Shown piece after piece: positions 10,720 to 34,700 of a DNA stretch of 64,000 nucleotides (positions within the stretch are counted from its first letter, which is position 1; the number at the start of each line of letters is the position of its first letter). Both the position numbers and the translations under genes were made by a program. Below the pieces are notes generated by a model. That model did not search any database and had not been told where the DNA came from. It saw only the letters and a list, made by a program, of their open reading frames with translations. The stretch comes from Psammoneis japonica. Its lineage: Eukaryota. The stretch is from assembly GCA_008632985.1 (NCBI GenBank), contig QPGO01000031.1, positions 124,001 to 188,000 of the forward strand. Reading direction: 5' to 3'.

Positions 10720-11850
10720 GTCACACACCCAACTTTGATGCGGTTGGACAAGCGGATGTGACAATTCGCCAACGTGGTGGGCCAGCAAGTCCAGCTCTTG
10801 TTGACCGATTGAACACTTCAGGATCTAACACAAAGAGTCCCATCCTCAGACAAGTCCACTTCACATGGAACCTTGCCTTGTCGACATCATGATTGAAAAA
10901 CAGCACACCAGAAACTTTTGCACATCGAAGACAAGCCTCCCATTTTTTTGTCTTGAGCCAGCCCATGACGGACCTTGCCACGCTCATCGCTTTTTGAACT
11001 GAGCTTTGCAAGTGAGCCACAAACCCACTTTTGTTTTCACATGCCATGTGTGAGATAGCTGACTCTTGACACATTCGTCAATGCAAGCGCACCTGGATCC
11101 AGCAGCACGCTGGTCCGGCGAGCTCCTCTCTCAAGCTTGTCGTTCTCCTTGCAGTTTTGGCAGCATGTCTTGCCCTGCAATTTAGCATCAAAACCAAACA
11201 TGTGCCAGCACTTCCTGGTCTTGCACACATTTGTTGTGTGCAGCTTGGCTTCTTCCATGATGCTCTTGTCATCATGCATGCAGAAAACATCGGCGCAGTG
11301 GCGGACGTGCACCTCAGCTGACTGCATGTCCAATGCTTCACTGCACTCTCACAAAATTCTTTCACAGCATGACATCTTTGCTTCCACAACTCCACCCATG
11401 TAAACTGAAGTCTTTCAATCATCATGCATGGCACGTTCTCTCTGCCAATGTTGTTTCTTTCATCTGCACCTGTCATCAATTGACACAAGTTGGCAGCATC
11501 CCGTCTTGCATGTGGGTCAATGCACAGGGATGTCCTCCTGCTTGCCAACCCTTCCATGAGTTCATCCAATGAGAAGCTAAAATCTGCTGCTGCCCTCTGC
11601 AGATGCTCTGGGCATGGGTTCGTTGCGCTTGGTGTCCCGCTCATCGACAGTCCCATCGTGTCCTTTGTCTCAAGGAACTTTGGCAAACAGCCACTTGGCC
11701 ACTTCTTTTTGTTGGGTTTGAACCATGCAGCAACTTGCATGGATTGCATTGACAATGCACTCTTCCACATTCATTGTTTTCTTGACACAAACAATGTGCA
11801 TGGGCTCCAAAAGCTCCTCACCTCACCTCACATTCACACTGAACATTGAA
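10720..11850 (-). mobile_element. Possible 3' fragment of a degenerate non-LTR retrotransposon
   Basis: The remnant ...LQFTWVELWKQRCHAV resembles the C-terminal LWxxRNxxV segment of diatom LINE ORF2. Otherwise unrecognisable. Confidence 0.3.
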
Positions 11851-11851
11851 T

Positions 11852-14800: not shown

Positions 14801-16900
14801 TAGACATCTGATCAATTCTGTGTGATTGACCTGACCATTGCATGCATCCATGATTGTCACATGGTTGACATGTGCAATGACACATGACCACAAATGTGCG
14901 CATGCTGCACCTCAGCATTCACAGAGATGAGCTCTAAATTCATGCCATCTCCGTGACTTCTGCCAGCATGTTGTTGAATTCTGGATCACACTGAATGTGA
15001 AATCCATCTTGAACAATGCCATGTTCTTGTGCTGTCAGAGAATCACATCCAAAGCTGTGCTTCTTGGACTTCAGTCTCACACTCAATTGGCACTTGATTG
15101 TCTTGTCAACCACATGCTTCCACAATGTCAATGCAGAGGGTCATGTCTTCTCTCTGCTTCTTGCAGATCTCTGGTGGAGTGGCAATGATGTTGCTCCTCT
15201 TGTGGGAGGTCTTGCCTTTCAGTGCATTGATCACATCTTTGAGTGGGGTGAACAGGTTTTTCACCTGATTGGATCATCAAAACAGCTTGAAATCCCTCAC
15301 ACTGGGCATTCCAGCCTCAGCCTCAATGCTTCCTCAGTGCTTGCCACCTCTTGTTTGGTGCAGCCCTTCACACTCTCTTTCACAGTTGGAACAACAGCCC
15401 TTGATGACTTCTGTGCTTCTTGATGGTCTTCTTTGTGACCTTGTTTTTGTCCTTCAACAGCATGCTCACATGCAACACACAACTCATCTTCTTGAAGTTC
15501 TTTCATGTGGTCAAGGAATCACTGTTTTGGTGCAAATGCATGCAGCCTGATGCCATTGACTTTGAACACCATGACCTGCTTGCCAGACTTCTTGTCCAGC
15601 AGACAGAACTCATCCACCACCCTGTTGTCCTTGCATGCAATGCAGCACTTGCTCTTCACATCCTTCAAGAAACTCAGGATGTTTGCTGTTGAGTTTGGTG
15701 ATCCAAGCTTTGTGTCACCCCATCCTGGCACAGTGCAGTCTTTGTCCAAAGCATCCACTTCTGCACTCATGGACAGGTCAATCTTCTTGACCCTTGCTGG
15801 TCACACATTGTGCACTGGACTCTGGGGCATCTCTTTGATTCTTAAATGTTGATGGGTGGTCATTTTCAGTGACCCATCCTCTGGTTGTTTCACTTCCAGT
15901 GTTTGCTCCAGGGACTTGACAAGTGTGTGGAATGGACATCAACCCCTCATGGAGTCAAGCACAAGTGACTGGATAAGCTTCAACAGCTTGATTGGGTCAT
16001 CTCTGATCCTCAAGTGACTGGGATTAGCCTGCACTCTTTGCTTTTCTTCATTGGCTCTGAGCAGCAATTATCTTGGATTCTTGCCACAAATGTGGCACTC
16101 TTGTTTTCTTTGAGCTTCTTGACTTTCTCATTGCAGAAATGCAACTTGATCTTGTGCTCATGTTCCAGTTGCCTTTCTTCTCTGGCCTTCTTGTTTGCTG
16201 TTTTCTGGCAATCCATGTCTGATGCTGCTGGCACTGCTGCAGATGCCATCTGCAGCATTGGACTCTTGCCAGCAAAAGTCACACATGCCATGTCTTCCAG
16301 GGACCTTGCCAGATGCATGCCTTGATCAGAGCAATTCTTCTGCACCATGTTGATGATCTTTTCCTTGATGTCTCCAAACATCACATTGCATGAGTTGCTG
16401 TTCAATGATGGGCAAAACTTCATTTCTGGCTGAAAGCACTTCTCTTGGGGTGGGTCTTCTTGCTCTTGTTGCAGCAAAACTTGTGGCCTCTGCCACCATT
16501 CCACCTCCTTCTCTGCCACTCACAGTGCAGGTTTCTTGTTTTGGATGATCAAATGGAGGCCAGTGTCACATGCACTGAATGCAGTGCTCTTGACTCTTTG
16601 GAGCGAATGTTGAACCAACAAGTCAATGTCACCAAAAGAGAGTCCTCTGAGGTTTCCTGTGCCACTTGTTGCACTTTGTCCTGGTTGCCATGGCAGCTGT
16701 GTGGTTTGCCTGGAAGCTCTCAACAAACTTTGATCTCACAACACACAAAGGGTGCCCATTGATGCCACAGCATGCTTTGCACAAACCAGACAATTCGCTC
16801 CAAAGAGCAAAATGAAAGAAGGTTGGTGAGATCAGTGATGAGCACACATTTGTTCTCAAAGTGTCACCCAACTCACCATGTCAGGATCCAAAGCATCATC
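11852..16900 (-). mobile_element. Degenerate Ty1/copia (CoDi-like) LTR retrotransposon
   Basis: RNase H remnant SSTEAE..V.DAM..MLWTKLFMEHQGH..NVLHQENKSAILFETNG..S.SK.SRALNI.HFFV...TKPL (11974..12483). RT remnant ALMFL and GPTASLEGMLT (about 12900-13400), integrase remnant about 14300-14900, gag-like region about 16000-16500. A possible LTR end ...CCTGACA followed by TGGT lies at about 16879. Confidence 0.85.
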
Positions 16901-16976
16901 TCTTCAACAGATCTTTTGCTGGGTTTCTCATGTTTCCCCCACTCTTTCTAGATGCTCCAACACATTTAAACCAAAA

Positions 16977-17060
16977 TGCAGCATTGGATGTCACCATTTT
17001 GACTTGCATCTTGGGGTTTGCAGCATTGGATGTTGCAATTTTGATTTGCATCTTAGGGTT
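16977..17060. repeat. 42-bp tandem duplication
   Basis: TGCAGCATTGGATGT...TTTTGA.TTGCATCTT.GGGTT occurs twice with period 42. Confidence 0.75.
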
Positions 17061-18069
17061 TGGCAGCTTTGCACTTGACTGCCCTGTGCATTTTGAGCAC
17101 ACTTGCTCTGGCACTTTTTTGGTTTTTAACCAAAACAAGAAGAACAACACAACCCTTGCCCCAAAGAAGTGACATTCATTGCCAGATGATGAGGGTTGAT
17201 TGGGGCTTTTCCAAATCCTTGTCTTTCACTCATCCTTTTCTTTTGCACTTTCTGGGCTGTTGGGCTCAGTTGATTTCTGCAAGGATGCCAAGACCCAAGT
17301 GCTGGCAGCACAATGAGGTTCTAAAGAATGACCACATGTTTGACTGCTCTTGTTTCAAACAGCAAAGGACAGCTCATGGCTGCTTTAGCTCACAACAAAA
17401 TAAAGGCTGTCACTCTAGACAACCAGCTGCTGAGCACATCATTTCCCTTGCCCCCAAGGTCACACTCATCTCAATCATTTGCAGCATTTTAATGATTGGT
17501 GCACAGACAGAAGTTCTCAAGAGTTTTCATCAGCTCAAATCTTCCCCTTTCTGAGAGCAAAACTTGCAGCTCTTGCCTTTCCCAAGAAGAGTGCCAGCCC
17601 ACTCCAACCATGGAGTGAGTGGGTGGGTGGTGGGGAACTGATTTTGCTGCAGACATGTGGCCATTGGCACACAACCTGGGAGATCACATCATTCTTGTGG
17701 GTTTGCCAGAATTTGAATCCACTGGCCTGGAGATGCACAATCTTTCCTCTGCATGGAAGGGCTCAGTCATTTCAGGTTTTGATGCTGACATTTTTCCTGT
17801 TGTGCCTTGCCCACATGAGCACAAACAAGTGGGGCAGTCCATGCAGGCTGGTTGAAGCACTTCCTTGCAATGCTCATCTTTCTCTTCTTGTTCAAGATTC
17901 CAGTGCAGCATTGACAATGAGCAACAACAAACATGTGAATTTTCATGTGGCAGCGGGCAACTCACAAACTCATGGCACATTTGAAGAGTTCATCAATGTG
18001 GTTCAACAAGCAACAAGCTGCTTGCAAACACAGTTGTGGATGGAGCTGACACAGATTTCATGATGTTTT

Positions 18070-19200
18070 TGAAGGAAAAGTGGAGTTTGGTGGGGCATTC
18101 TGAAGCTTCTGTGATGTCACATGAATTGCACAGCTTGTGAGAAGAGTTTGGTGTGCCTTCAATGCACCGATGCAAGGATCATTCCAATGGAAACAGTGCG
18201 GAGTGTGGCAGCTGTCAGCAGAAGAATTGCGGTGAGGCAAAGCAAAAGCTTGCTCTGAAGAGGGTGTGCAAAGTCGGGTGTCCTTTGCCAAAGCCTGCCT
18301 TCCACTCCTTTGCAGCACCAGTGTCAGAATTGTCTCTTTTTTGGTCCATGGCAATCGATGACCAAAAAATCATTTGAGATGCAACTTCAAGTTGCTTGAC
18401 ATTGTGTTCATCAAAATGTGCCAAGTGTTCTTCAATCTTGTCACCATTTTGCAAAAGTTCCACGTGCCACTAAAGGGCACCATTGGCAAAAAAGTCTGGC
18501 TCCCCAGCCACAGTGTTGCCACTTGAGTTGGTGGCACATGTCTTCAATGGACTTTGTGCATTTCAAAATCTTGATTGCTTTGCATGAAGGCACACTGCGG
18601 CAGCCCAAAATCAACTGCTGCTTGATTGCACAGCTTCTGGTGCTTCTCCAATGACAAGGTCACAACTCACAAAACATCAACGGTGAAAATGGCATTTGTC
18701 CCTGTGATGCTCATTTTCAAAGACCAGTTTGACAGGCTGGATGGTGGTGGAGAATTGGCTGTGAGCACAACAAAATGGGGGCTGTGCAGTGTTGCACTGC
18801 TGTTCACCCACACTGTGCAGATTTGGTCACTGGCATCCCAGCGCTTGTAAAGTCGAGCATCAAACATGAGCAGTGGGGGTGGGTGACTCACACCATGTCA
18901 AGGCACATTTGGAGAGTTTGTGGACAAGGCTCAACAAGCCACCTGCGAGCACAGTTGTGAAGTTGGAGCAGATGCTGCAACGTTTAAAATGGAAAAACGG
19001 AGTTTGGCGGCACTCCAATCAAGCACGAGTGATGAATGGGGATGTTCTCTAGATTCTGCATGATGCGCAGGCAAATGGAGCCAAGCATGCCTTTTAACAC
19101 ACCGATGCAAGGATCATTACACTAGAACAAACAGTGCCAAAATTGGACAAATGCAGTGGCTGCCAGCAAAAGAATTACGGCGAGGTGGAGCAAAGAAAGA
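18070..19200 (+). repeat. Diverged direct repeat pair (about 18070-18250 and about 18990-19200)
   Basis: Shared blocks GGAAAA..GGAGTTTGG, CACCGATGCAAGGATCATT and GCTG.CAGCA.AAGAATT.CGG.GAGG. Confidence 0.65.
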
Positions 19201-21030: not shown

Positions 21031-22735
21031 CTACGTTCTTGCAGTTGGCATCTTCACAAAGGCTTTTCGGACCTTGGAAGACGCCACCAATGGTATCTTT
21101 ACAACTCTCTTCCCGTACGTCGTCGAGGCAAAACCCACTGAAGCAGCACGCTCCACGATCATCGACCTTGGGCTCACAGGTGACATCTTTACAAAGGCTG
21201 TTTGGGCCTTTAAAGACGCCATCAGCATCTTCACAACTGTCCTTCAGTGCGTCGTTGAAGCAACGACCGCCGACGCAGCATGCTCCAAGTTCGTCGAATA
21301 TGGGCATACATGTGACATCTTTACAAAGGCTATTCGGACCTTTGAAGACGCCATCAGCGTCTTCACATTTATCCTTTAGGGCGCCGTTGAAGCAAAGTCC
21401 GCCGACGCAGCATGCTCCAGGCTCATCATCTGTGAGCGTGCATGTGACCTCTTTGCAAATGCTGTCTTTTCCTTTGAAGACACCCCGGTGTTCCGATTCA
21501 CAAAAAGTGACCGGAGAGCCGTCGACGCAAAGCCCGTTGCCGTAGCAGCAAGCCCCACGATCAACTCCTGTAAAGTCACAAATGTCGGGCACAGTACCTG
21601 GGGGAGAGCATTGCTCTCCAAAACCAACGAAAGTCCCTCCCATCCTGCCGCACCTGCTTTTCTTTACATCCCAGCAACGTCCGTTCTGTCCAATGCAGCA
21701 GGCGCCCCGAAGCTTGCAATTGTCGGAGTCGCACGTGGAACCATCGCCAAGGTAGGTACCTCCTCTCAATTTGCACCTGATTTCTGTGACGTCGTTCCCG
21801 CACCTACCAGCCTCTTGCAAGCAACAGCCTCCTCGAGGGCCAACAATTGGATTACACGCTCCCGGGACACACTGTGTTTTCAAGCCCTGGAAGTCGCCTA
21901 CTGTATGAGAAAGTATCCATAATAAACACGTTAGTGTGGTGCCCACACGTGTTCGAAGATATCAAACAAGAGAACAGCAAAGACCCTCACTACATACCTT
22001 TGCATCTCTTCTTTCTGCGAGTCCTACATTCTCCGTTAGAATAACAGCAGGCACCAAAGGCTTCTGGACACTTCTTTCGGCTGCATTTCGAACCGAGCCC
22101 CTTGAATGTGCCCCCACGACTACTACATTCGCGGGGTCTTAGAAAAACACATCGACCTTCGTCTGGGAAACAACAAGCACCATTTCGACAAGATTTCAGA
22201 AAGCACGGCGAGCGCCCTCCGTACGTTCCTCCAAGGAGGTCACACAACCGCTTCGTTGTCATAGTGCACTTAGGCTTTCCATCCAAGCAGCATAGGCCAA
22301 AGGTCTTTAAAGGCTTACGTTCACCGCATGATGAGTGTATTTTTCTGTGTGTCCAATTATTTCTTGCGATGAAACGTACCGATGCTTTTATCCCACCAAG
22401 ATCTCTCTCAATCGTTTCTTTAGCGTCATCCGCAACTCCAACAGGCGCAGGCTGAGAATGCATTCGTCAATGGACAGAATTAGATTTTACGTAAGAAAAT
22501 GGTTTAAGGGATAAACATAGCGTTTCAGCAAAACTTACATTTGTCGAGTCAGTTGAAAGCTCTGGACGCCAAGGAAAACCGCAAAGAGATCACAAAAGAG
22601 ATTAAAAAAAATCAGTTGAAAGCAGTGTACGCGTGCACTTTTCAGAATCATCAAGAACACCACCCCTAACGCACCTGTCGCCTTACAGAGCACGGTTGTT
22701 ATGATAAGAAGTCCTCCTTTGTAAAATAGCCTCAT
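19571..22735 (-). CDS. Secreted Cys-rich GACC-repeat protein, paralogue 2 (repeat-expanded, C-terminally truncated)
   Basis: Signal exon MRLFYKGGLLIITTVLCKAT, 23-nt micro-exon (ELSTDSTN), and further exons including the 791-aa ORF 19571..21946 with many DEPGACC repeats. It ends at a TAG where paralogue 3 has Lys. Confidence 0.8.
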
Positions 22736-22813
22736 TGTGGACCAAGAAGAATCGTAATGATTGCAAGCAAAAGTTGATTCGTATTTCGTTTTATGAGAAG
22801 CAAAAAGCCAGTC

Positions 22814-23020
22814 TGGGGGACGTCTTCGGAAGTGAGACTGTCGAAGAAAGTTACGTAGAATTTGTACTAAAACAGTCTGTCAATCAGTGCGATTGGGTAT
22901 TTGGGACCTCTGGACAGATCCTACGTGTTTTCTTGCGCGTACAAAATGTACTGGGAAAACCCCCAAACGCACTGGCGATCAGACCGCCTTCGACGATCTC
23001 ACTTCCAAAGACGCCCCCCA
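22814..23020. mobile_element. 207-bp MITE with 33-bp TIRs and 4-bp TSD AGTC
   Basis: Left TIR TGGGGGACGTCTTCGGAAGTGAGACTGTCGAAG vs right TIR reverse complement TGGGGGGCGTCTTTGGAAGTGAGATCGTCGAAG (29/33). AGTC flanks both sides. The paralogous locus at about 49360 has the empty site GCC-AGTC-GTGTCG. Confidence 0.9.
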
Positions 23021-23419
23021 AGTCGTGTCGTCAATGTTCTCACGGTGATGAAATGACGATGTTGTGTGTAGGTTGTAGGTTCTACGTAGTCCAATACTAG
23101 GGGAAAATATTTAACAATCATGACCTAGAGACTTGCAAGGTCATAGGGAGCTATTGCTCCGACAAGCAAATTCTCGTTTTTCGTTAATTGTCAGATGAAC
23201 AATTGTTTCTTTTTATTTAACACCTTTTCGTTAAATGTTCCAGTTTGTTAAAGAATGTGACAAAATCATGACAATCGTTCAAGTGTCGCAGACATATCGA
23301 AATGGCATTTTGGCCGCGCGCACCTAAACTCTAGTAGAGGAACCTATCCTCGATAGTCGGGCTACAAACACTCGTTGAGCGAGACCGACGACCGACGACC
23401 GACGACGACTTCTTGCAGT

Positions 23420-24144
23420 TTTGAGGGAACGTACAGCATTTAGTCACCGTTGTTGCTCTCTTCTTCCACAAGCAAAAGGGATTCAGATCAATGGAAAACT
23501 CAAAGTGAATGAGGGAATGCACCTGTTTTCGGTTCCCTTCCAACTGAACGGGGAACGAACAACAACAAAATTCGCTGCGTTGCTGTCACCGAAGAGATTT
23601 CGTTGCATGCTTGTGAAGCTTTTTGTCCACATCAATGAACCGTTTTCTTTTCAAGCTCTCAAATGGCATCTTTTGTGAGGCCATCCTTTCATCAAGCTTC
23701 TCAGCATCGTTCCAGAAGGAGAGCGACGTTGGTCAGTTGGTCGGCAAAGTCATCTTTCAACCTTCGCACCTCTTCTCATTCTTGTCCCAAAGTCATGCAC
23801 ACATGTGGAAACACAAGACAGAAATTGTCTGGTCTCATGGCTGCAACAGGCAACAAAGATGAAGGAGATGTCAGAATCGACTCAGATGGGTCGGGAGAGA
23901 AACACAGCGAATGTGAGGAATGCGCGCAACACTTGTGTCCAACAAACCTTTTTCACCCTGTCAAGATGGGATTGGATGCATTCATTGCCTTCACAAGCTT
24001 TTTGGGCAACCCATGGACAAGACAACTGTTGCTCACATTGTGGGAACAAACGGAAAGGGAAGCATCATGCTGAAAATTGCCAAGGTGCTTGAGTCATCTC
24101 CGGGCAATCTAAAGGTGGGCTTGTTTTGTTCACCACATGTTTCT
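23420..24144 (+). pseudogene. folC: Truncated, hypermutated copy of the folylpolyglutamate synthase 5' region
   Basis: Aligns to 49945..50688 and keeps HIVGTNGKGS and GLFCSPHVS. It has deletions, frameshifts and systematic TA/CG to TG/CA changes, and is cut off by the TE block. Confidence 0.9.
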
Positions 24145-24533
24145 CAGCCATGCTCTTTTAGATGACAATGGAGCATCTTCACTCTTTCTTGCTGGTGTGC
24201 ATGTTGTCACTGCCACAAGTTCGCAGATGGAGGTCCCATGTGCTTGTTGCTCTTGCTTGCTGCTGTCGCTGCTCTGTCAGACAGAAGGGTCCCGGCCAGC
24301 TGCTGTCATTTCACCTGTCACTGGCGGCATTTTCTGCAGTTTGATCTTGATCTTAGAAGCGTTGGCTGCTTGAAAATGCCTCTTTCCAGACATTGTGAAC
24401 AATTCAAGCTGTGTTCTTGGTCAACTTGGCCGGAGCTGTCATGTCCACAGCATCTGCTGGGGAACCCGTGCAAGCATTTGACATCTGACAACTGCCCAGG
24501 ATCATCTCACTCAGTTGCAGAGGGTGTTGTTGT

Positions 24534-26374
24534 TGGAACATTGGGGTGAGAGGCAGTTTTCACAGGACAGACAGATGACTTTGCAGTGGGGGATGCACTG
24601 GTGATTGTGGATGATGTGGCAAACTTACGTTTGCAACTCGGGTTGAGCTGCAGGGCTTGTGCTCACTTTTTTAGCTTCTGCACCCAGTCAACATGGCAGT
24701 GGTGGCAACAGCAACAGAAATGCGTTTGCAGTTCATGAAGTGAGTTCAGGGATTGGTGAAGCTGAGTGTGTGCCAGTCAGCATGCCATGAAATCCCAACA
24801 CAAAAGCTGGAAAGGCTGGCTGGGAAGTCATCAAGAATCCAAAGGTGCAGCTCATGTCAGCGGATTGTTGCAAACAATCAGGTGGGATGAAGGCAAAGAA
24901 ACAATCTCTGGAGGGCATTGCTGTGAGGAACCTGTTGCTGATGGTTTGCTGAAAGAGGGTGTGGCAAGGTTGTGTTGGGCTGGGACAACTTGGGCAAGGA
25001 CACAACTGAGCAAGGAAGCACAAAGATTCAAGAAAGGAGTGGGTGTGTGATCTCAGCATTGCAGAGTTGAGATGACAGGCAGATGGTCACACAGCAACCA
25101 CAAAGCACACAAGTGAGCATGTTGGAAGAATGTTTGGGCTGGAGATGCAGGCGCTGGTGTCTCTGAGGCCGGAGAACAAACTGGAGGAGCTGGGGTTTCC
25201 ATTGGGCAGGCAACAAGGCATTGGAGAGAAGGACAAGGCAATCTGGATGGAGCAGTGCAATCACAGCATGAAACAGGGCATGATCCACAAGATGTGGAAA
25301 GGTGAAGGTGTTCAGCACAATTGTGGGAAAGTGCACAAAGGCTGTCCACCACAAGGTTGAAGGAGTGATGGAGTTCAAGGGGGTCACAAAGGAGTGGGGC
25401 AGTGCTGTTGGAGATTTTCCTTCAAGCCAATCCTGTTCAATGCAAACAAGAGAATCTGCTCTCATGTCCAGGTGGTGGCTGAGGCTTGGAAGCAGTTGGC
25501 TGGTGTGCTCATTCATCAAGATGAAGGAGAGATGCTTCAAGATTGTCACGGTTGGCTCGCGGGCATTGTTGGGATGGTGGAAGAAGGGTCCTGTGGCAGA
25601 CTCGCCCCAGAAGAAGTCACCAAGAAAGAAGATGGGTTCAACAAGAAAGAAAGAAAGAAAGAAAAAAAGAAAGAAAGAAAAAAAGAAAAAAGTTGTCAGC
25701 GGTGCTGCCAATGGAAGGCACCAAGGAACATCTTTGTGTCTCTTGAAAGACCTGCACAGGCAGTTTGTGCCAGGGATTGACAACTGCCCCAATTTGGCCA
25801 AGGAGACACACCACAGGTGTTGGAGACACACGCAGATCCAACAAGAAACCTGAGTGTGCAAGCTTTGCACAAAACAAGTGCCGAAAATGCAACAAGGTTG
25901 GGCGCGCAAAGCAGGGTTGTCCTTTGCTCAGTGATGATGGCAATCATTCATTGGCAGAGTCAAACAACAATGCGGGCCATGCAAGTCAGTGGAACAGTCA
26001 AAGTGGCACTGCTGGAGGATGGCATGGTTTCCAAGGTGTCATCCTCCTGTGCCAAATGCAACACACAAGGCCAATCTCAGCTGATGGCTTGTTCAAAGGA
26101 GTGTCATGGGACATTGGGGTGAGAAGCAGTTTTCACAGGAGAGACAAACAACATTGCAGTGAAGGGTGCGCTGACAATTGCAGATGATGTGGCAAATTCA
26201 TTTTCTCAGCTCGGGTTGAGTTGCAGGTCCTGTGCTCATTTTTGGCTTCTGCACTTGTCCAACATGGCAACAGCGGCAATGGCAACAGAAGAAATGTGTT
26301 TGCAATCCACAAGGTGAGTTCAGGGATCAGTGAGACCAAGCATTTGCCAGTTGGCAAGCTGCAAAATCCCAACA
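24534..26374 (+). repeat. About 270-bp diverged direct repeats (24534-24800 and 26107-26374)
   Basis: ACATTGGGGTGAGA.GCAGTTTTCACAGGA, CTCGGGTTGAG.TGCAGG, GTGAGTTCAGGGAT and AAATCCCAACA occur in both copies. Many differences are reciprocal TG vs CA. Confidence 0.75.
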
Positions 26375-27149
26375 GGTGCATGAGCCATTCATTGAATCTT
26401 TTGGATGGACCAAGGCAGGCATTGATTTGATTTGATTGTTGCCAGTGGTCATGCTGGCAAGCAAGTGTTGCTGCATCTGCTTTTGTTTTTGATGCCAAAA
26501 ACACTGCCAAAGAAGAAGCTTGTGCCTTTCTTCATTGTCTTCAGTGAGCACAGTGCCCAAGTCATTGCCATCTGCGTGGCACATTTCACACTGGACCTTG
26601 TTTGAAACATTTGCCATCATGTTTGATGCAGAAAAAACAAAGAAGTTGAGTGAAAAGTTCAGATGGCAATGAAAGGCATCAAATGAAGATGCCCTGCTTT
26701 GGGACCCACACTGCGCATGATCACAATGAGCCCACAGCAGACTCTCCAGGTGTTTCTTGCACTTGGTGTTAAATGTTGACACTGCTGCAGCTGACCCCAT
26801 GGTTGGCTTGAGCTGCATTGCACAATGTCTCAGCATTTTGGAAAGATGAAAAATTGATTTTGTGCATTGTGAGCATCATTGTCAAAAATCACAGCAGTGG
26901 TGGCACCATGCACAGATGTGCCCCCCCCCCCCCCCAACACAGCAAAATGACACTGCATGTTCATCACCTTGGCTCTTTGTTTGTTGCAATGGAGCTGGAA
27001 TGGAGGCAAGCTTTTTTCAAAGTGAGCTCATGTTGTCATCTCTTCCATTGTTGTTTGTTGTTCAATGCATTTTGTGTTGTGCATCGGCATCACACAGAAG
27101 CACTGATGCACGTTTTTTTGTGCATCAGCACCAATGCCTGCCTCTTTCT

Positions 27150-28900
27150 GATGTGCCCCAGGTGCCTGCATTCTGACCAGCATGCTTTGAAAATTGCTTC
27201 ACTGCATTTCCTGCAGCCATGCAAGGATGTGCAGCATCCTTTTCTCAAGGCAGTGCAACTTGCATCTGGCACATTCAATCTGGCCTTCCTGGTGCAATCA
27301 CAGCAATCCTTGCTGTGGTTGAATGTGTTTGCAGCTTTCTTGTCTTGCACAAGGTCTTCTTCCTGCACAGGCCTCTTTGTCCTTTCTTTCGTCAATGTGT
27401 CTTTCCATGTGTGAGGCCATGTTTGCAGAAAAAGCCTTCTCCACAGCTGCAAGGTGTGCATTTCTTCTGTCCCATTTTGGCTTTTTTGTGGGGTTGCACA
27501 TGATGTCTGCCCAATCCATGCCAGCACCTTTGTTGACACACTGCATCCCCAGGTCCATCATCCACTTGAACTTTCATCATGTTGACTTGGTGCTTTTGTG
27601 AAAGGGATGTCCTGTTGTTGCAAGCCTCTTTGTTGTCACTTTCATCATGTGAGTTTCCAAGTCCATGCAATGGCTCATGATGCAGAGGTGGCATCAATTT
27701 CCCTTCAAGCTGGTGGACCAGTCAGCAGTCTCCCTGTCTTCTCTGTCTGCAGCATGCATGAACTTGATGCAGTTGGGGATGACTGCATGTGATGAGACAG
27801 GAGGAACTTGGTTGTGCTCATTGTTGTCCCACCACAATGCTTTGCAATTCCCAGGTGCTGCACCCACCATGTGGTTGTGCAGCATGCCAACCTGTTTTCT
27901 GTCTTTCCAAGTTGTTGCCTGCACTGCAAACCTGGCCACATTGCTCTTCTTTCCTTGCACAGCTTTCTGAGCCCAGCACAACCACCCACAAGGCACCTTG
28001 GACAATGCTCCAGATGACAGTTTGTGGAAAGGGAAGCTGCTTGTGTGCATGTCATGCACCATCTTCATGAGCTCTTCTGACATGTGGAAATGGTTGGCAT
28101 GCAGCTTGTGTCCTTTTCCCAACAAAACCAGTTTGGGGTCCATGGCCAACAGCCTTGAAACAACTTGCAGCAGCAAGGCATCATCATTGTCCTTGCTGGT
28201 GCAGATGTAAAATGCATGGAGATGTCCAGTTTCTGCACAACACAGTGCCCGCACTTTTGTGCTGTGTTTGATTGGTTTGACAGGCATGCATTGAGCAAAC
28301 TTTACAGCCCTGCCATTGCAGAGAATCACAGACTCATCAACTGTTGGCTTCTCTCCAATCACCCACCCTCCCTGAGTCATTTGCCAACTTTGTTTGCAAA
28401 GGGGATCATCTTCTGCAATGGGTGCCATCTTGAGGTGCCGTGCTTTGGCAACTTTCTGTTGTTGATGAAGTGGATGAACCTTCAAATCTGTGCAAAGGCA
28501 CTTGAGAAACAGAGTTCTGAATCCATGGCAATGCCAAGTTGCAAGTTTCTATCCACAGAAGGTTTTGCCTGCCACTGGACTTTCATTGCAGCCAGAACAA
28601 ACAGAGCTTCAAACCAAGCAAGGAGGCACCCAGGAGTGACTGGAGCCCCAGGTTTTTTTGTCCTTGTGTTGCTTCCTCCTGTCAGAGTGGTGCTCATCTC
28701 ACATGGAGCCAATGCCCAGCTCTCCTCTTGGGCTCTCTTCCTCAAATTCTTCATCCCCAAGCTTGTCACCTGAGTTGCCACCTTTGCTGCTGCCAATGGA
28801 CCAGTCAGAAGAGCAGCAAGAGAAGAGACAGAGTCCTTGTCATGAGAAATTGTCCAAAAGCTCCCATGAGCTCCAAACAATGCCAGTGTCACTCAAATGA
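27150..28900 (-). mobile_element. Degenerate piggyBac-type DDD transposase
   Basis: TVDESVILCNGRAVKFAQCMPVKPIKH.TKV.ALCCAETGHLHAF.ICTSK, WKDRKQVGMLHN, VIPNCIKFMHAADREDR and a C-terminal Cys-rich domain match the piggyBac consensus with Tyr replaced by Cys/His. Confidence 0.85.
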
Positions 28901-29149
28901 GAGGCCTCATTGCTGGTTCCAGAGGTGCTCCTGCTGCTCTTGCTGCCACTGCTGTTGCATCCACTGGGGTCAAAAGCTGAGCCACCAAAGAGAGAGTTGC
29001 CATCATCCATGAACCAGCTCCTTTTGCCTTTCTCCAACAAGCAACTCCAAGTCCAGCTCCAACTCATCACAGTCAGCCCAGGACAAGGAAAAGGACATTT
29101 AGAACAGGGTTGGACTTTGCTGTCTCCACCCCCCCCCCCCCCCCACCCA

Positions 29150-31310
29150 ACAACCAGGCATCCTCTGGATGTTTCTTTTGATGCCAATGGTTGCAAGTTT
29201 GACAAGCGGGGCAGAGACATCAACGACTGTCAAGCAGCTGCCAAAATTCAAGCCAACATTGTTGGGATCTCTGAAGTGTGCTTGAACACCGCTCATTTTG
29301 ATGTTCTCTCAGTGTGTCAATCTGCTGTGTCAAATTTGCTGCTCCATGGTCATGGGACCCATTCTAGCAGCTCTGCCACCTTTGCTGCTCAGCACAAACC
29401 AGGAGGTGCAGCCATCATCTCGTGCAATTCTGTGTCCACCCAGTGCCATTTTCAGGAATTGGACCCACTTGGACGGTGGTCTGTTCAAGCCTTTGGTGGC
29501 CACAATGGACAGCAAGCAGTGTTTGTTTCCTGCTGCAGAGTTTGCACCAAGAATCAACATCAACCAGGAAAAATTATGACGTGTGCACAACAACTTTGCT
29601 CATTGAGGCAACAAGGCCACCAGGTCGTCAATCCATGCCAGGCCTTTTGCGTGGATTTGTCTTGCATCCTCCAAGATTTTCCAGCAGGGTCCAATCAAGA
29701 GGTTGTCATGTTTGGCAACTTCAATGCTGACTTCATGGTAGATGCTGATCCTTGTCTGCCCTGGCCCAGTGATTTAATCTTTCTGATGTCCTTTTCAACA
29801 TCAGGGGTGACACCAAATTTTCCACCTGCACACGTGGATCCAAATGCCTCTGCCATGTCCTTGCATCTCCAGGTGTCTCACATGTGCTGCTCATTTCGGA
29901 GGCTGTGAAGCTTTTGGTTGTTACATTGCTTCTGACCATCATGCCTGTTTTGTGGATCTCAACACTGTTGCCTTGATTGGGGACCCAGCTGTTGATCTTC
30001 CCAAATCCTGTTTTTGTGATGTCCAGGCATCATCTGAACCCCAAGTGACCACACACCTGCAGACTGTGGGCCCAATGATGCTTGAGAGTTGTTCTGTTCA
30101 GGAATGGTTTGCAAAGTCATTGGAACTTGATGCTCCCAATCATGCCTTGGCTAGATGGTTGGACCATGACATCCTGCAGTTCTCCCTGGTGCAGCTGCCA
30201 AGAAGTGTCATGTTCACCACAAACCAGATTGGTTGGTTGAACTTGCAGATCTGCCACACTGTGCACATGTGCTCACTTGAGTTGTTTCCATGATGCACAC
30301 TCAGCTGGACCATGTTGCTCAAATTAGAAGCATTTGAGAAAACCTTCACAGTTCTGTTGGTGTTCCAGAGACCTTGCAACAGGCAGCAGTGGCCAGTGCC
30401 ATCCATTGTAGATGGGAGATCTCTCAAAAGATTGCAGCACTCAACCCCAAAGGCACTGAGGCTTCTTGTAAGAAGGCTTCCATTTTGCTGAACATTTGGA
30501 AAGCAGAGGAACTGACCAAGCTTTTCAAGAAGATTGACCCATGCAATGCTCAGTGTGATGCCAGCATCAACAGTGTTCAGGTCCCTTGAAACCCTGGAAT
30601 TCACCCCAAGGAATGTCAAGACTGAGTCACTGTTGATGCTCCAAAAGATGCAGCTGCTGCACTCTGTCAGTGCAACCAGAAACCTTTTGGCCAAGCAAAA
30701 GGGATGCCTCCCACTGTGCTTCCTTTGTCTGTTGATTTGGGATGTGAAGGCAACACGATTGTGCCAGACCTCTTTCTTGATGGGGGGAAATGGCACCTTT
30801 GCCTTGAATGAAGCCATGCAACTTTTCATCCAACACCTGAAAAGGTGGTCCTCCATCTCTGCATCAACTTTGCTCTCTGAATCAGACTTGGAGGGAAAGA
30901 TCAAATGCTGGAAAGAGTCCACTTCCACTTCCATTGCTTGGGTCTCCACCTTGGTCACTGAAAGGTCATGTGTGCTCCTCACAGTCACTCCGACTCTGCC
31001 ACCTCCAACAGTGCCCATGCTGATGAAAGAAAAACCTTGGACAAAGTTCAACAGTTGCTTGTTTGCATCAGGCTGAATCTCTTGAATTGTGCTCTCCAAC
31101 GGGGACTCTCATTTGATTGCTGGAAAGATGTTGTGAATGTTGTGATCTTCAAAGAGCCAGGAAACAACAGGATTCACCGCCTCCGCATCATCCACATCTG
31201 CAAAGCTGATTTCCAACTTGTCTCAAGCATCAAGTGGTGTGCCCTGGTGCAAAATGTGGAGAAATGTCATTTGCACAATCCAGGTGTTTGTGGCACCCAT
31301 CCCAGTCATG
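29150..31310 (+). mobile_element. Degenerate non-LTR (LINE) retrotransposon, 5' part: APE endonuclease and start of RT
   Basis: APE motifs (D)ANG, IVGISE, KPGG, DPLGRWS, VSCCRV, FGNFNA and SDH. RT N-terminal block WKDVVNVVIFKEPGNNRIHRLRIIHICKADF. Confidence 0.8.
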
Positions 31311-31768
31311 AATCAAGTGCCAAGTCTGATTCATGGATGATGCTTCTGTTCATCAATCTCTGCTTCTGGAAGAACCGTTGAGTCTTCCAGTGACAGCAAT
31401 TGGAGTGACTCACATGACCGCCAGGTCAAAATGTCATTTCCAGTCAACCTTGACATCTTCTCACAATTCGCATCTTCAGCACAACTTGTTGTCCTTTGCT
31501 GTGATTGTCATCCTCTGCACTGCATTGCACAACCTCAAGAGAGGTGTCCTCCTTCATCATCTGTGTGGTTGGTTGTGTCTTGAGTGGTTGCAACCCCAGT
31601 GACACACTGGCGTCAACCTGCAACAGCATTGCTGCCACCCAATTGTCCCCTTCGATGTGACATCTCATCCTGCAGTGATCTCCTCCATGTCGCACTCTTT
31701 TGGCAATCTTTTGTGTCACAATCCCACCCTTTCAATTGATCTTCTGCATTGAATTCCCATCCAGAACC

Positions 31769-34700
31769 ATGTCTGGCGCTGATCCCACTGCTCCCAGAAT
31801 GGATCCAGAAGCATTCAAGAAGTTTGCTGAGGCTTTTGCAGCCATGCAAGCATCCAACGCATCTCCACCCATCCCAACACCTGTCTGTGGTGGATTGCAT
31901 CCCTCTTGCGGTGTGCATGCCTTGGCGGGTCTTCTTTGGATGACACCTGCAAACCAAAAAATGCTCACACCTGCCACTTTGCATCTCAGCATCATCATCC
32001 AAATGCCATTGAGTCCATCAAGCAATCTCTCCATGAACAACTTGCTTTGGCAACTGTTTTGAACTTCAACGGTCAAATCAAGCCATCCCATGGTCCAAGT
32101 GCCAAGTTGGATGAGGAAGACTTTGTCAAGACCATCTCTGCCAAGACCTTGTAAAGTTGCGTGGGCAGGAAACCTTCTGCCATTTCAAGAAATCTGATGG
32201 CAAGGTTGTGTGTGCCCATTCAACTGTCTCCATGCCATTTCTGTCAGTGACCTTGAGATGGAGTGCAAGTCCCGCAACGCTGCTTCTGGTGATGAAGGAT
32301 GTGATGATTGTGAGAAGGACAACATTGCTCTCTCTCAACTCCTGGTCAAGTCTCGCACCACGGAAACATTCCACAAGAAGATTGAAGTGAAGTTCAATCA
32401 CATCCAGGACTTCAAGGATCTTCTGGGGTCAGCATTGTTCATGATGGCCCTGGACACTTGCAACGCAAGTGCCCTTGTAGATGTCAAGCCTGCTGAGAAA
32501 AAGCTCAAGGTGCCATTGCTTGAGTCCCACCCTGGCAAGGATTGCACTGAGCTTGCAACCAAAGCTCTGCATCTGGTCAATGTCACAGGCTCTGCTGTTT
32601 TATCCAAGGTGTCCAAGACATCATCTGAGTTCTTCAACCATCAAGCATTTGTGAAAATGGACAACATCAAGAAGACAGAATGCAAGCACTGTCTCCATGA
32701 CCTGCCCGAAGTGCCGCACAACCTCAACTGCATGACCTCAGGCCCTGTTGGCCTTGTTGGCTGGATTGCCAAAACTCATGGTGAGCTTGTCAGTGATGAA
32801 GACTGGCCTGCCTTGGCTGCCAAACTCCCTGAGTCAAACAACGTGTCCACCAAGGACATGCAATGTTGTGGACGTGATGCATTTGGACACACCAAGTGCA
32901 CCTGCAGACATGGACAAGCCACCCAAGAAGAAGAAACCTGCCTGGCATTTTGTCAACAAAGGCCCCACCCTCACAGATGACAAAGGCACCCTCTGGAAAT
33001 GGTGCAACAAGTGCATCAACAAGGAAATGGGCAAGACAGGGATGCGCCAAAGCCACTCAAGTGAAGAACTTGTCAGCAAGCATTCTTCCACCTCTGACAC
33101 TGCTGCTTCGGCAAATCTGTCCACTGTGACTGACCTTTCTTTGGGTGCCCCATTTGGTCCCCCCAAGCAGACAACAGCTCCACCAACAGACAAGCCCTCA
33201 GATCCCAATGAACTTGTCTGTTGTGGTGTGTGGTGCACTTCTGTCAATGATTCTCTGAGTGGCCCTCCTGTGACCACTTCAGCATCTTTCACTCCTGCTG
33301 CTCTGATGGCTGAGAGGGAGACCACTGTGGCCAAACCTGCTCAAGTCTTGGTCAAGACAGTTGACCCTGAAGAAGCTGATGACTTCTGCAAGTGCTCCAA
33401 TGCTTTCTCCTTGATTGCCTTGGAACCACCAGCTGTTGAGCTGTTTCCAGCCTGTGCTTTGAATGAGATCAAGAATCCGGATGTGTTTGCCTCCATGATG
33501 CCATCTCAAGTCATGTGGAAGAAGGGCTGTCAGATGGCATGTCAGATGATCTTGTTTGCAAAGCAAGCAACCCATCTTTTGAAGATGCACATGAAACTTG
33601 CCTCCAAGCTTCCATTGTTGTGGGTTTGACTTCTGTGATCCAGAAACCCAAGACACTGTTGATTGTCAAGTCAAGGAAATGACCTTGAGCTCCCACCTTG
33701 AGCTCCTTTGGAACTTTTTCAAGCTTCAAATTTTCTGGCTGTTTGCCATGCTCTGGGAAATGGTGCCACACATGTGCTTTGCTCCTGTTCCCATCCCACC
33801 TTGTTGCATCCACGCAAGCAACTCATCCCAACCATTGACAGTTTCCCACCCACTTGGGTGGTGTTGACCAAGGCGATCATGGTCTGGGCATCTGTCTTCA
33901 ATGGGCAGGTGCCCACACATCCTTTCTCCAACGTCCCTGCTTGCTTTGCTTGTGCCAGCTTGCAGGTCTGTTTGATTGTTGAAGAGCCAGATGACAAGAT
34001 TGTGTTGGATGCGGGCAGTTTGGTTGAATGCAACAAAGTCAAGGCACATCAAGTGCTTGCCGAGTTTTGTGGCACGTGATCCAAAGCACTGCTTGAGCAA
34101 GTTTGCACAGCTCTGGGAGGACAAACGCTGTCCATCTGAGGGCTCTTGCATCCCTCCTGCTCTTGAAGACCCCAAATCCTTCTTTGACACCTGTGAAACA
34201 AAAGAAGCCCTTGGTCCATCATCAACTGAGCCAAGCTGCCACTTTGACACCATCGAAGGGCTGTCACCAGACTGTTTTCATTTCAATGACTTGTCCACCA
34301 AGAATGGCTTTGTTGATGCCACTGCTTGGCAAGACCCTGTCAATCTGCTCCAAGAGGCTGTAGATGGAACTGCAGCTCATCCTGCTCATGCCTCCATGCA
34401 GGTGTTGACTGGGAAAATCCCTTTGGAGTGACTTGACACTGACTCGAACTTGTTGTCAAAACAATGGCGCATCACATCCCTGAGGCTGGGCAACATCTCC
34501 TGTTGCCCCAGCACCCATTCAGCAAGAAGCATGGCATCTCAGGAAAGCATGAGGGAGATGAAGATTCATTTAAATTGCACATTGACGGTGCTGGCTCCAT
34601 TGAGGTTCCATGCACAGCAAATCACTTTGCCCGTTGCAATTGCCTCCAACAGCACTGCTCCAGCTCCTCAAGTCAACCTTGCCACACTGAATGAGGACAA

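Follow-up and report, generated by a model that had tools for sequence, protein, structure and literature searches.

Why has one copy of a duplicated folC fragment lost all of its TA dinucleotides while the other has kept them? The window in which this question arises, the whole stretch of 64,000 nucleotides of Psammoneis japonica DNA analysed here, carries the fragment twice. A preliminary description of this DNA had claimed that the TA sites were converted in one direction and in one copy only, by a process that depends on position rather than on pairing of the copies and that spreads into host sequence next to transposable elements.

The duplication and the DNA around it

Copy A (21046-24144) is collinear with copy B (47647-50688) according to self-BLAST and a MAFFT alignment. 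The copy B locus carries a full-length FPGS/folC gene (50188..51771, plus strand), which tblastn aligns with residues 20-541 of a 544-aa diatom homologue. This gene is spread over four abutting frames: apparent frameshifts of 1 nt stand near 50740, 50984 and 51488, as read from the assembly sequence only. Copy A holds a truncated duplicate of the gene whose mutated part occupies 23445..24144 on the plus strand; the unmutated counterpart in copy B (49926..50688, plus strand) comprises the 5′ flank and the first 117 FPGS codons. The preceding part of copy A (21046..23310) corresponds to 47647-49658 in copy B and, judged by BLAST, alignment and site counts, has diverged in an ordinary, non-directional way. 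A microsatellite-like spacer without homology interrupts the collinearity (23311-23408 in copy A, 49659-49925 in copy B), a 28-nt indel separates the copies at 23597/23598, close to the edge of the mutated zone, and copy A carries an extra 208-bp insertion relative to copy B. The tandem layout of the two copies depends on a scaffold gap (N run 46618-46888); they could also be alleles or dispersed copies, and the control that copy B provides is no weaker for that.

Read contigs from a public run match copy A at 23766-24141 and 24115-24559 with 0-1 base differences. The reads come from two runs of one sample and one study and cover part of the window; since the assembly may have been built from them, they do not count as independent support. 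The depth of the contig at 23766-24141 (64) is similar to that of the flanking host contigs (46-55), and the contig across the breakpoint at 24144 has 30 letters on the left side, one under the 31-letter bridging rule. The read contigs also identify three assembly errors, a gap of 1 nt at 23977 and indels at 24667 and 26035.

The 208-bp insertion (22814..23021) is MITE-like, with terminal inverted repeats, and is restricted to copy A; BLAST of this element against the window returned no second copy. It is nevertheless multi-copy in the read contigs, with a summed depth of about 15,000 versus 50-110 in the neighbouring bins and with loose ends at 22813/22814 and 23020-23022. It lies 424 bp from the mutated zone and is depleted neither in TA (8 sites, observed/expected ratio, o/e, 0.61) nor in CG (14 sites, o/e 1.10). 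On the other side of the fragment, the duplication breakpoint is followed by TA- and CG-depleted DNA (24145..24530) that precedes any sequence shown to be repeated and in which TA occurs only at 24159 and 24354 and in which neither a recognisable transposon feature nor a Pfam hit was found. One contig, of depth 64.7, covers 24115-24559, and it is only at 24530/24531 that contigs from other copies split off. Over 24.2-25.6 kb the contigs add up to a depth 2-10 times higher, indicating that the blocks are at least partly repeated.

Four further stretches of the window are depleted in both dinucleotides. The fully depleted block that follows the fragment (24531..38762, TpA/ApT 0.04) holds the remnant of a piggyBac-like transposase (27697-28548, minus strand; Pfam DDE_Tnp_1_7, E = 1.6e-8). 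Dinucleotide composition delimits another block to the left of copy A (10660..19050), one at 53490..56605, and one that runs off the end of the window (59975..64000). A Ty1/copia LTR retrotransposon occupies 38763..45440 on the plus strand, with LTRs at 38763-38981 and 45222-45440 and a pol ORF at 41710-44646 that contains RVT_2 and matches Copia-type polyproteins at E = 4e-235. These two are the only recognisable transposable elements in the depleted DNA: a Pfam search of 90 ORFs (stop to stop, at least 110 aa long), taken from all depleted blocks apart from Copia, had DDE_Tnp_1_7 as its sole solid hit, and the other 89 ORFs had none. Hits to SNF, Fer4_4, Mpp10, DnaJ_CXXCXGXG and FRG2 in block ORFs were sub-threshold and were treated as noise. 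No Pfam match was obtained for the host ORFs 2646-4808, 8245-9456, 51946-53550 and 58687-59529.

Directional, one-sided mutation at TA and CG

The mutated zone, defined as 23598-24144 of copy A and aligned with copy B over 544 nt, contains 69 substitutions, of which 60 are transitions. All 19 TA dinucleotides of copy B have been lost from it, becoming CA (8), TG (7), CG (2), AA (1) and TC (1), whereas 10 of 31 CG dinucleotides are kept and the rest have become CA (11), TG (8), CT (1) and GG (1). The preliminary description had counted about 15 converted TA sites and no survivor over roughly 23600-24144, a count that agrees with the 15 changes to TG or CA, and its example strings (50335-50350 becoming 23792-23807) are exact, as is the peptide change. 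Changes in the reverse direction number just two (one CA>CG and one TG>CG), and the one new TA in the zone derives from TC. The two strands are affected alike, with 7 TA>TG versus 8 TA>CA and 8 CG>TG versus 11 CG>CA. When transitions at TA and CG sites are left out, the substitution rate in the zone (0.059-0.065 per site) is about that of the upstream duplication (0.070-0.083), so the excess of substitutions is confined to TA and CG.

Which copy has changed? The composition of copy B is that of normal host DNA, its counterpart segment having 24 TA and 39 CG over 49958-50688 and a TpA/ApT ratio of 0.50, compared with 0.03 in the fragment. Furthermore, among 23 replacement differences judged against 60 outgroup diatom FPGS proteins, the copy B state is favoured as ancestral at 18 and the copy A state at 1, with 4 uninformative. 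Tyr40, Arg45, Tyr48 and Ala83, for instance, are each present in 60/60 outgroups, in agreement with copy B. Thus, TG and CA are not supported as the ancestral states, and both the direction and the one-sidedness that had been claimed are borne out.

The rest of the duplication serves as an internal control. Outside the zone, 63 of 85 TA are kept, versus 0 of 19 inside (Fisher p = 8e-10), and 86 of 111 CG are kept, versus 10 of 31 inside (p = 6e-6), so that TA loss is equal neither in the two copies nor along the duplication. The copies differ there by 7.8-10.2%, and the idea that this part is untouched therefore fails as regards identity and holds as regards direction: transitions at TA number 14 towards copy A and 9 towards copy B, those at CG 17 and 15, and about 2.3 kb of the duplication is without directional change in either copy. 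The weak lean of the upstream TA changes towards copy A could mean weak activity past the zone.

Plotted in 200-bp bins outward from 24144, as the preliminary description had suggested, the two kinds of change behave differently. TA conversion is all-or-none (4/5, 10/11, 3/3 and 1/3 sites, then 15/84), whereas CG conversion fades gradually (7/9, 9/14, 3/13 and 1/3, then 19/118). TA conversion ends 536-703 bp from the breakpoint. It is certain from 23608, and TA is retained for the last time at 23432 and 23441, two sites that share their homologous segment with the converted part; the edge is coarsely resolved, there being no informative TA between 23445 and 23608, and the lone change at 23445 could be background.

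The same signature characterises the blocks, where TA and CG are the only depleted dinucleotides (o/e 0.04 and 0.12, the latter versus 1.00 in host DNA). TpA/ApT is 0.04-0.06 in the blocks and 0.65-0.74 in host DNA, and (CpA+TpG)/(ApC+GpT) is 1.69-2.22 in mutated DNA versus 1.11-1.22 in host DNA. The fragment and the fully depleted blocks have a GC content of 0.46-0.49, compared with 0.53 in the Copia element and 0.47-0.49 in host DNA. At all block edges examined, TA depletion extends 300-500 bp beyond CG depletion. The TA that survive stand in the context YTAR 60 times versus RTAY 2 times, TAG and TAA being enriched; preferences at positions -2 and +1 are inseparable in these survivor counts, because each complements the other on the opposite strand.

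The Copia element adds a second polarised case, in which TA is depleted (o/e 0.12) and CG mostly kept (o/e 0.75). Its LTRs show 15 differences in 219 bp, all of them at 12 Y-R sites and none elsewhere. Ten TA survive in the LTR that lies at the block edge, and 5 in its inner counterpart; TA has been lost in the inner LTR alone at 6 sites and in the edge LTR alone at 1, at three sites one LTR reads CA where its partner reads TG, and two CG have been lost in the inner LTR. The whole element, both LTRs counted, still has 58 TA sites. Such differences between the two LTRs imply that the changes arose after Copia insertion. With at least 13 events at TA sites and no change at about 380 other site-copies, we estimate by hand that the rate at TA sites exceeded the background more than 100-fold. 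In the pol protein, 15 of 18 columns in which relatives conserve Tyr have lost it, with Cys in its place at 9 and His at 4, while the controls are changed at 0 of 11 columns for Trp and 2 of 31 for Gly. Each of 80 related Copia loci from metagenomes has a TA o/e of at least 0.48 (median 0.70, none below 0.2), compared with 0.12 here; the scan was ranked by similarity and thus favours intact elements, so these values give a family baseline rather than a statement on absence elsewhere. Altogether, a retroelement, a class II (piggyBac-like) remnant and host folC DNA are affected.

Position, chemistry and the possible trigger

What, then, decides which DNA is hit? We consider it probable that a DNA-level mutation process, confined to a domain, acted after the duplication on copy A alone, and that position decides, not duplication or repetition. 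The domain would be made up of the block rich in transposons that lies to the right of 24144, together with a margin. It would ignore sequence boundaries, entering the host folC fragment by the 536-703 bp given above, and its right limit would lie near 45.34 kb, leaving roughly the outermost 100 bp of the Copia 3′ LTR outside it. Two kinds of transition, both on the two strands, would take place in it: a fast change of TpA to TpG or CpA (A:T>G:C at TpA) that reaches completion, and a slower, graded change of CpG to TpG or CpA. Transposon-restricted CG methylation occurs in diatoms; the domain may be silenced, methylated chromatin, and the loss of CpG would presumably reflect deamination of 5-methylcytosine. 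CG loss looks like a separate, slower process superimposed on the TpA process, since the younger Copia element keeps its CG while its TA is depleted. The loss of TpA is probably enzymatic. It could proceed by adenine deamination through a TadA/ADAT2-like enzyme, the natural tRNA substrate of which, A34, follows U33, or by thymine modification instead; A>G and T>C leave the same sequence, because TA is its own reverse complement.

This last property gives the best surviving alternative, which keeps the domain and replaces the chemistry. A thymine modification targeted to transposons at TpA, for example 5-hydroxymethyluracil (5hmU) made by a TET/JBP-type dioxygenase, would pair with G and yield T>C. 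The near-equal numbers of TG and CA products (7 and 8) are what T>C at a palindromic site would give, and TpA and 5mCpG, both steps from a 5-methylpyrimidine to a purine, would follow one logic. In dinoflagellates, as described in the accessible part of PMC11572971, 5hmU is enriched in repeats, aids transposon silencing and replaces T mainly in TA and TC, which also speaks for this chemistry. On the other side, the scheme takes 5hmU or 5-formyluracil to be mutagenic, and no base of the 5hmU type is known to us in diatoms. From such a TA-plus-TC preference one would expect TpC/GpA to be depleted in the blocks, and it is not (1.00 and 0.97, versus 1.11 and 1.08 in host DNA). We regard this chemistry as unlikely, if the best of the alternatives.

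Somewhat less likely again is hypermutation triggered by repeats or homology, on the logic of repeat-induced point mutation (RIP); it would have acted on repeats in the block and reached the folC fragment by leakage. Both the increase in depth over 24.2-25.6 kb, with contigs of other copies diverging at 24530/24531, and the Copia and piggyBac remnants in the blocks speak for it. Moreover, fungal RIP leaks into adjacent single-copy DNA, and spreading alone is thus compatible with a repeat trigger acting on the neighbouring block. Against it, the 2.3-kb duplicate, at about 91% identity, has undergone no directional change in either copy; the multi-copy MITE-like element, perhaps under a length threshold, is unmutated 424 bp away; and the Copia element's two LTRs, identical at the start and equally part of a repeat, differ by position. 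Together with the mutation of non-repeated host DNA, these observations uphold the dependence on position that the preliminary description had proposed in place of pairing. The claim that the process spreads into host sequence next to transposons stands in one half, since host folC DNA is mutated; direct abutment on a transposon is unsupported, as no transposon feature is recognisable in 24145-24530.

It is improbable that the fragment was mutated elsewhere, as transposon cargo or by gene conversion from a mutated copy. The spacer at 23311-23408 does part the fragment from the rest of the duplication, and the indel at 23597/23598 does lie close to the zone edge. Nevertheless, order and orientation remain collinear with copy B across the spacer, the unconverted TA at 23432 and 23441 lie in the very segment that holds the converted part, CG conversion is graded by distance and not uniform, and the contig at 23766-24141 shows no sign of further copies at a depth of 64 versus 46-55 for the host.

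Hardly credible either, and a shade less so than transfer of a mutated fragment, is ADAR-like A-to-I hyper-editing of transposon or read-through RNA that was returned to DNA by reverse transcription or RNA-templated repair. Read-through transcripts could account for a margin of a few hundred base pairs. ADARs prefer a 3′ G, however, and the surviving TA (YTAR 60 versus RTAY 2) show the opposite. The strands are equally affected, the LTRs diverged after insertion and not before integration, a DNA-transposon remnant and a host fragment are mutated too, and C>T at CpG is left unexplained; ADARs, to our knowledge, are confined to animals. The 5′ U/T preference would fit editing of the ADAR type, as cited in the accessible part of a preprint (10.64898/2026.01.13.699255), and fungal editing, as given in that of PMC11156358.

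An artefact or a reversed polarity, in which copy B gained TA and CG or the assembly or sequencing erred, is the least credible reading of all: the indel errors at 23977, 24667 and 26035 and the three frameshifts in copy B lend it something, but the outgroups side with copy B at 18 replacements against 1, including the four residues found in 60/60, the mutated sequence is found again in the read contigs with 0-1 mismatches, and the Copia ORF and the LTR pair each polarise the signature on their own.

Significance and comparison with known systems

Hypermutation of DNA directed at TpA has been described once before in the literature available to us, for viruses integrated in a rhizarian alga (a 2026 preprint). 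The locus described here is a natural experiment in a second lineage, the ecologically dominant diatoms. It fixes properties that could not be deduced from composition alone, namely the direction of change, its action on DNA after integration and its indifference to duplication; it also fixes a sharp spatial edge that crosses from mobile DNA into a host gene, and it separates the TpA process from CpG decay in rate and in reach. These properties narrow the mechanism to something that is read from position or chromatin, and the exact coordinates given here indicate where the mark may be sought. There are practical consequences as well. Because the blocks keep a normal GC content and, with TAA and TAG erased, long open frames, they will be misread by RIP indices, GC scans and gene callers, and because Tyr gives way to Cys and His in transposon proteins, these are hidden from domain searches. 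Host genes that adjoin depleted blocks can suffer bystander damage.

The process resembles RIP of ascomycetes in being a hypermutating defence that acts on DNA after integration, by transitions, wrecks the reading frames of transposons and can affect adjacent sequence. In contrast, RIP makes TpA from CpA, whereas TpA is destroyed here (TpA/ApT 0.03-0.06); there is no AT enrichment, GC being as in the host; and RIP mutates both copies on duplication, whereas here only copy A is mutated and copy B is not. RIP is premeiotic and depends on methyltransferases of the RID/DIM-2 type. Decay of methylated CpG shares the change of CpG to TpG or CpA on both strands and the restriction to blocks (CG o/e 0.12 versus 1.00 in the host), with a loss that is polarised in the fragment. 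It covers the CG half only; the TA half is faster (0/19 versus 10/31 kept) and reaches 300-500 bp farther out. Dinoflagellate 5hmU, according to the accessible part of PMC11572971, is a transposon-targeted modification of A:T pairs with a TA preference in a related lineage, but it is presented there as an epigenetic mark, a mutational signature not being mentioned in that part, and its TC preference has no counterpart here. ADAR-type editing fixed by retrotransposition would affect a single strand, before integration and in retroelements only, which is not the pattern observed.

In a literature search with thin coverage of subscription journals, we found no diatom report of TpA-to-TpG/CpA hypermutation or of TA-depleted transposons. 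The closest known case, on the portion of the preprint accessible to us, is Bigelowiella natans, in which de novo TpA>TpG/CpA hypermutation has been measured in the integrated giant-virus and virophage DNA of mutation-accumulation lines, an ADAT2-like enzyme being the candidate, and in which TpA-depleted, CpA+TpG-enriched clusters are enriched in reverse-transcriptase and DDE domains (Mettrop et al., 2026, bioRxiv 10.64898/2026.01.13.699255). Both systems change TpA to TpG or CpA on either strand, in certain regions of the genome, orders of magnitude above background. As to confinement to foreign or mobile DNA, the blocks here do hold Copia and piggyBac-like remnants, but 89 of 90 ORFs are unrecognisable and host DNA is mutated in the margin. 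The hosts differ, a diatom (stramenopile) here and a chlorarachniophyte there, and so does the depth of depletion, with a TA o/e of 0.04 in the transposon-rich blocks versus 0.45 in the viral region reported in that portion. CpG>TpG/CpA changes are coupled to the process here (19 of 31 CG sites in the fragment, block CG o/e 0.12), whereas essentially no G:C>A:T change is reported in the same portion. Spill-over into host DNA is polarised here by a paralogue; the evidence from B. natans is of de novo events, and the accessible text does not mention CpG, flank, spread, boundary or diatom.

Is this a general system? We tentatively propose, though leaning slightly against the proposal as a whole, that diatoms carry a GC-neutral genome defence that edits DNA in silenced domains, where it turns TpA into TpG or CpA on each strand over 100 times faster than the background and favours RTAY over YTAR, works alongside methyl-CpG decay, and follows chromatin position rather than homology. 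Since a chlorarachniophyte shows this signature in action at present, such a system could have an old origin and a wide distribution within the SAR supergroup; scans of GC content and RIP indices are blind to it, which could explain why it has gone unnoticed.

One-sided loss of TA and CG in a folC duplicate

The gene that the preliminary description named folC encodes a folylpolyglutamate synthase (FPGS), and its best relatives are diatom proteins (top identity 77%, with named matches from Seminavis, Nitzschia, Cylindrotheca, Mayamaea and Chaetoceros), so the organism is a diatom and not Bigelowiella. Self-BLAST and global alignment confirmed the duplication, which comprises a truncated copy A (21046-24144) and its intact counterpart, copy B (47647-50688). 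The two are collinear except for a 208-bp insertion in A (22814-23021) that is absent from B, a few indels and a non-homologous microsatellite-like spacer (A 23311-23408 versus B 49659-49925). Homology stops at 24144/50688, beyond which B runs on as a full-length FPGS (matching a 544-aa homologue over residues 20-541) in four abutting frames, that is, with three apparent 1-nt frameshifts at 50740, 50984 and 51488. Because the linkage between A and B crosses a run of Ns at 46618-46888 (a second run lies at 56008-56054), which parts the depleted block and its flank from B, the order and distance of the copies rest on a scaffold gap; they may be tandem copies, dispersed copies or alleles, and their use as a control is unaffected. 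The tandem-repeat gene upstream of folC is likewise common to both copies and open in both (19571-21961, minus strand, 796 aa in A; 46964-48520, minus strand, 518 aa in B), with a different number of tandem units (self-match offsets of about 135 and about 267 bp). A relative of this gene, about 75% identical, is found at 8918-9412, within 8245-9456 (minus strand); for the tandem-repeat gene itself, Pfam returns a weak zinc-finger match and nothing else.

The strings, coordinates and peptides quoted in the preliminary description proved exact. The end of copy A next to the breakpoint (the zone, 23598-24144) carries 69 substitutions over 544 aligned bases, of which 60 are transitions. Indeed, no TA of the intact copy survives there, as had been claimed: all 19 are absent from A, having become TG (7), CA (8), CG (2), AA (1) or TC (1), 15 of them thus TG or CA. 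Likewise, 21/31 CG of B are absent (TG 8, CA 11, CT 1, GG 1). Changes in the reverse direction amount to one CA>CG and one TG>CG, and one TA in A derives from TC. Since the TG and CA products are balanced for TA (7 versus 8) and for CG (8 versus 11), the strand is of no consequence. Outside the zone, 63/85 TA and 86/111 CG are retained (Fisher, zone versus rest, p = 8e-10 for TA and p = 6e-6 for CG); an equal loss of TA along the whole duplication, which the preliminary description held to be incompatible with its claim, is therefore not seen. Changes other than transitions at TA or CG sites are no commoner in the zone (0.059-0.065 per site versus 0.070-0.083 upstream), so that the excess falls wholly at TA and CG, over ordinary divergence. 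That the rest of the duplication is "untouched" holds for direction (TA transitions 14 towards A versus 9 towards B, CG 17 versus 15), but not literally, as it has diverged by 7.8-10.2%.

Outgroups give the polarity of these changes. The first 60 of 120 listed FPGS proteins were aligned to copy B and the 23 codons discordant between A and B were scored; this covers replacement sites, as protein outgroups cannot polarise synonymous ones. The B state was favoured as ancestral at 18 codons and the A state at 1, which rests on one protein versus none, with 4 uninformative. At Tyr40, Arg45, Tyr48 and Ala83, where A has Cys, Gln, Cys and Val, 60/60 outgroups agree with B. Thus TA and CG are ancestral and TG/CA derived, as the preliminary description expected of such an outgroup comparison. 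Read contigs, built from a public run that is possibly the same data as the assembly source, match A over 23766-24141 and 24115-24559 with 0-1 base differences; the contig at the breakpoint has 30 letters to its left, one below the bridging rule. They also identify a 1-nt gap at 23977 as an assembly error, with further single-base indel errors at 24667 and 26035, and the apparent frameshifts of B may be of the same kind. At 23765, a CG retained in the zone, one read contig has T for C (depth 41.7 of 238.8); either a CG>TG variant may be segregating there or the contig may be cross-mapped. Altogether, the folC fragment is a sound internal control for direction and one-sidedness, with one locus providing the host paralogue, and is the strongest single evidence in the window for the process.

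The depleted blocks and their Copia element

The same signature marks four blocks, at about 10660-19050, 24145-45340, 53490-56605 and 59975 to the window end. Pooled over their fully depleted parts, the observed/expected ratio (o/e) is 0.04 for TA (host 0.61) and 0.12 for CG (host 1.00), against 1.85 and 1.81 for CA and TG (host 1.16 and 1.11) and 1.00 and 0.97 for TC and GA (host 1.11 and 1.08), with little shift in the remaining dinucleotides. The GC content equals that of host DNA (0.47-0.49), so that a GC profile shows nothing. The indices used for repeat-induced point mutation (RIP) of fungi are 0.03-0.06 for TpA/ApT and 1.7-2.2 for (CpA+TpG)/(ApC+GpT), the opposite direction to fungal RIP.

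Few mobile elements can be recognised in the blocks, namely a Ty1/copia element (38763-45440; Pfam RVT_2; pol ORF versus Copia-type polyproteins, E = 4e-235) and a piggyBac-like transposase remnant (27697-28548). Outside the Copia element the four blocks total about 30 kb and contain 90 frames that run 110 aa or more from stop to stop; 89 of these have no solid Pfam match. Since TAA and TAG are erased, long open frames abound on both strands. The Copia pol (41710-44646) scores a weak 35 bits in Pfam versus 800 bits with phmmer. Such blocks would lead gene callers and domain searches astray. Surviving TA number 119 over 11200-18900, 24145-38700, 38982-45200, 53800-56000 and 60400-64000, with RTAY at 2 versus 304 in host DNA and YTAR at 60 versus 217, and enrichment is greatest for TTAA and TTAG. 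This strong flanking-base bias suggests a lead to a wider recognition motif, with the reservation that the ancestral block composition is not given by the sequence.

The two LTRs of one element are identical at insertion. Those of the Copia element differ at 15 of 219 positions, all within 12 pyrimidine-purine steps, and the process must consequently act on DNA after integration. TA was lost at 6 sites in the inner (5') LTR only and at 1 in the outer (3') LTR only, and the inner LTR also lost CG at 2 sites. Another 3 sites have CA in one LTR where its partner has TG, and so record separate hits on a single ancestral site; there is no further type of difference. A hand estimate from these counts puts the rate per TA site at more than 100 times background and several times the CG rate. 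The outer LTR forms the block edge and keeps 10 TA versus 5 in the inner one, normal TA density resuming about 100 bp before its outer end is reached, so that two initially identical sequences had fates that varied with position. The proteins agree: in an alignment with 16 near-full-length relatives of 150 listed (P0121-P0127, P0129-P0134, P0137, P0138 and P0140; P0128, P0135, P0136 and P0139 were omitted as partial), 15/18 columns with Tyr in at least 75% of the relatives are changed in the window element, with Cys now at 9 and His at 4, as TAY>TGY and TAY>CAY would give, versus 0/11 for Trp and 2/31 for Gly. TA o/e is at least 0.48 in all of 80 related Copia loci from metagenomes (median 0.70; CG median 0.90) versus 0.12 in the window element (CG 0.75). 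Two of the 150 listed relatives, P0208 (380 aa) and P0259 (220 aa) of public assemblies, share 44% and 57% identity with the window element; their 0% and 0.9% Tyr (median 3.8%) and 9.2% and 9.6% Cys+His (versus 3.9%) are the mark that this loss of TA leaves in proteins.

Reach and trigger of the conversion

Plotted against distance from 24144, as had been proposed, conversion is concentrated near the breakpoint. Per 200-bp bin outward, TA is converted at 4/5, 10/11, 3/3 and 1/3 sites and then at 15/84, and CG at 7/9, 9/14, 3/13 and 1/3 and then at 19/118; TA conversion is all-or-none with an edge, whereas CG conversion wanes gradually across the same distance. The TA at 23432 and 23441 are retained and all from 23608 on are changed, which places the edge 536-703 bp from the breakpoint, at a resolution of about 170 bp; the TA at 23445 is changed, possibly as background, and no informative TA site lies between it and 23608. 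At each block edge examined (10660-11300, 23445-23800, 53490-54020 and 56083-56605) TA depletion outreaches CG depletion by 300-500 bp, a CG-poor domain being therefore nested in a TA-poor one. The statement that the mutated copy abuts a transposon block holds in part: depleted DNA adjoins 24144, and contigs from other copies in the genome part from the window sequence at 24530/24531. The 386 bp between (24145-24530), also depleted, carry no TE feature that could be recognised, are spanned by one contig of host-like depth and show a 2-3 fold rise in summed depth, so that parts of them may occur elsewhere.

What do the affected sequences have in common? Duplication per se is no trigger, since neither copy is affected over about 2.3 kb of this duplication. 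The 208-bp insertion of copy A, 424 bp from the zone, is a MITE-like element with terminal inverted repeats of about 23 bp. It is strongly multi-copy in the read contigs, which have loose ends at each of its termini and a summed depth of about 15,000 versus 50-110 in its neighbourhood; its TA (8, o/e 0.61) and CG (14, o/e 1.10) are normal. Copy number per se may thus be no trigger either, although the element is perhaps too short for a fair test. RIP leaks outward from repeats, and here too a trigger on repeated parts of the block, leaking into its surroundings, may be at work. As a host fragment was hit, mobile identity is not needed, and as a DNA-transposon remnant, host DNA and LTRs after insertion were all altered, neither is an RNA intermediate. 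Together, the unmutated duplicate, the MITE, the LTR pair and the host fragment support the original proposal of a position-dependent process not triggered by duplication, whose common denominator is location within a block or a few hundred bp from one; chromatin is a candidate carrier.

Candidate chemistry and known systems

These features would be accounted for by two processes acting in one silenced domain. The CG half resembles 5-methylcytosine deamination under transposon-restricted methylation; CpG in host DNA is wholly undepleted. The TA half, the unusual one, is an A:T>G:C change at TpA only, saturating, faster and further-reaching than the CG half; the younger Copia element already has it, with CG still largely retained. 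TadA/ADAT2 enzymes naturally act on A34, after the universal U33, which would fit a TpA rule. TA being its own complement, the sequence cannot separate adenine from thymine chemistry, and the latter may apply instead: dinoflagellate 5-hydroxymethyluracil marks and silences transposons and favours TA and TC (PMC11572971). The undepleted TC of the blocks is a mild argument against it.

A full-text literature search found no diatom report of a TpA/CpG conversion signature. The closest precedent for the TA half is the TpA hypermutation of Bigelowiella natans (Mettrop et al., bioRxiv 10.64898/2026.01.13.699255). In the mutation-accumulation lines of that 2026 preprint, TpA transitions (A>G or T>C) make up 230/231 mutations in two integrated viral regions, at about 1000 times the background rate, and its authors suggest that an adenosine deaminase of the ADAT2 type works on DNA; the words CpG, flank, spread, boundary and diatom do not occur in the main text. 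What this locus adds is the near-completion of the conversion, its coupling to CpG decay and its spill-over into a host gene fragment; it also extends the TpA rule to another, unrelated lineage of algae, where it is aimed at transposon-rich blocks. The rule is common to both systems, the host being a chlorarachniophyte there and a diatom here.
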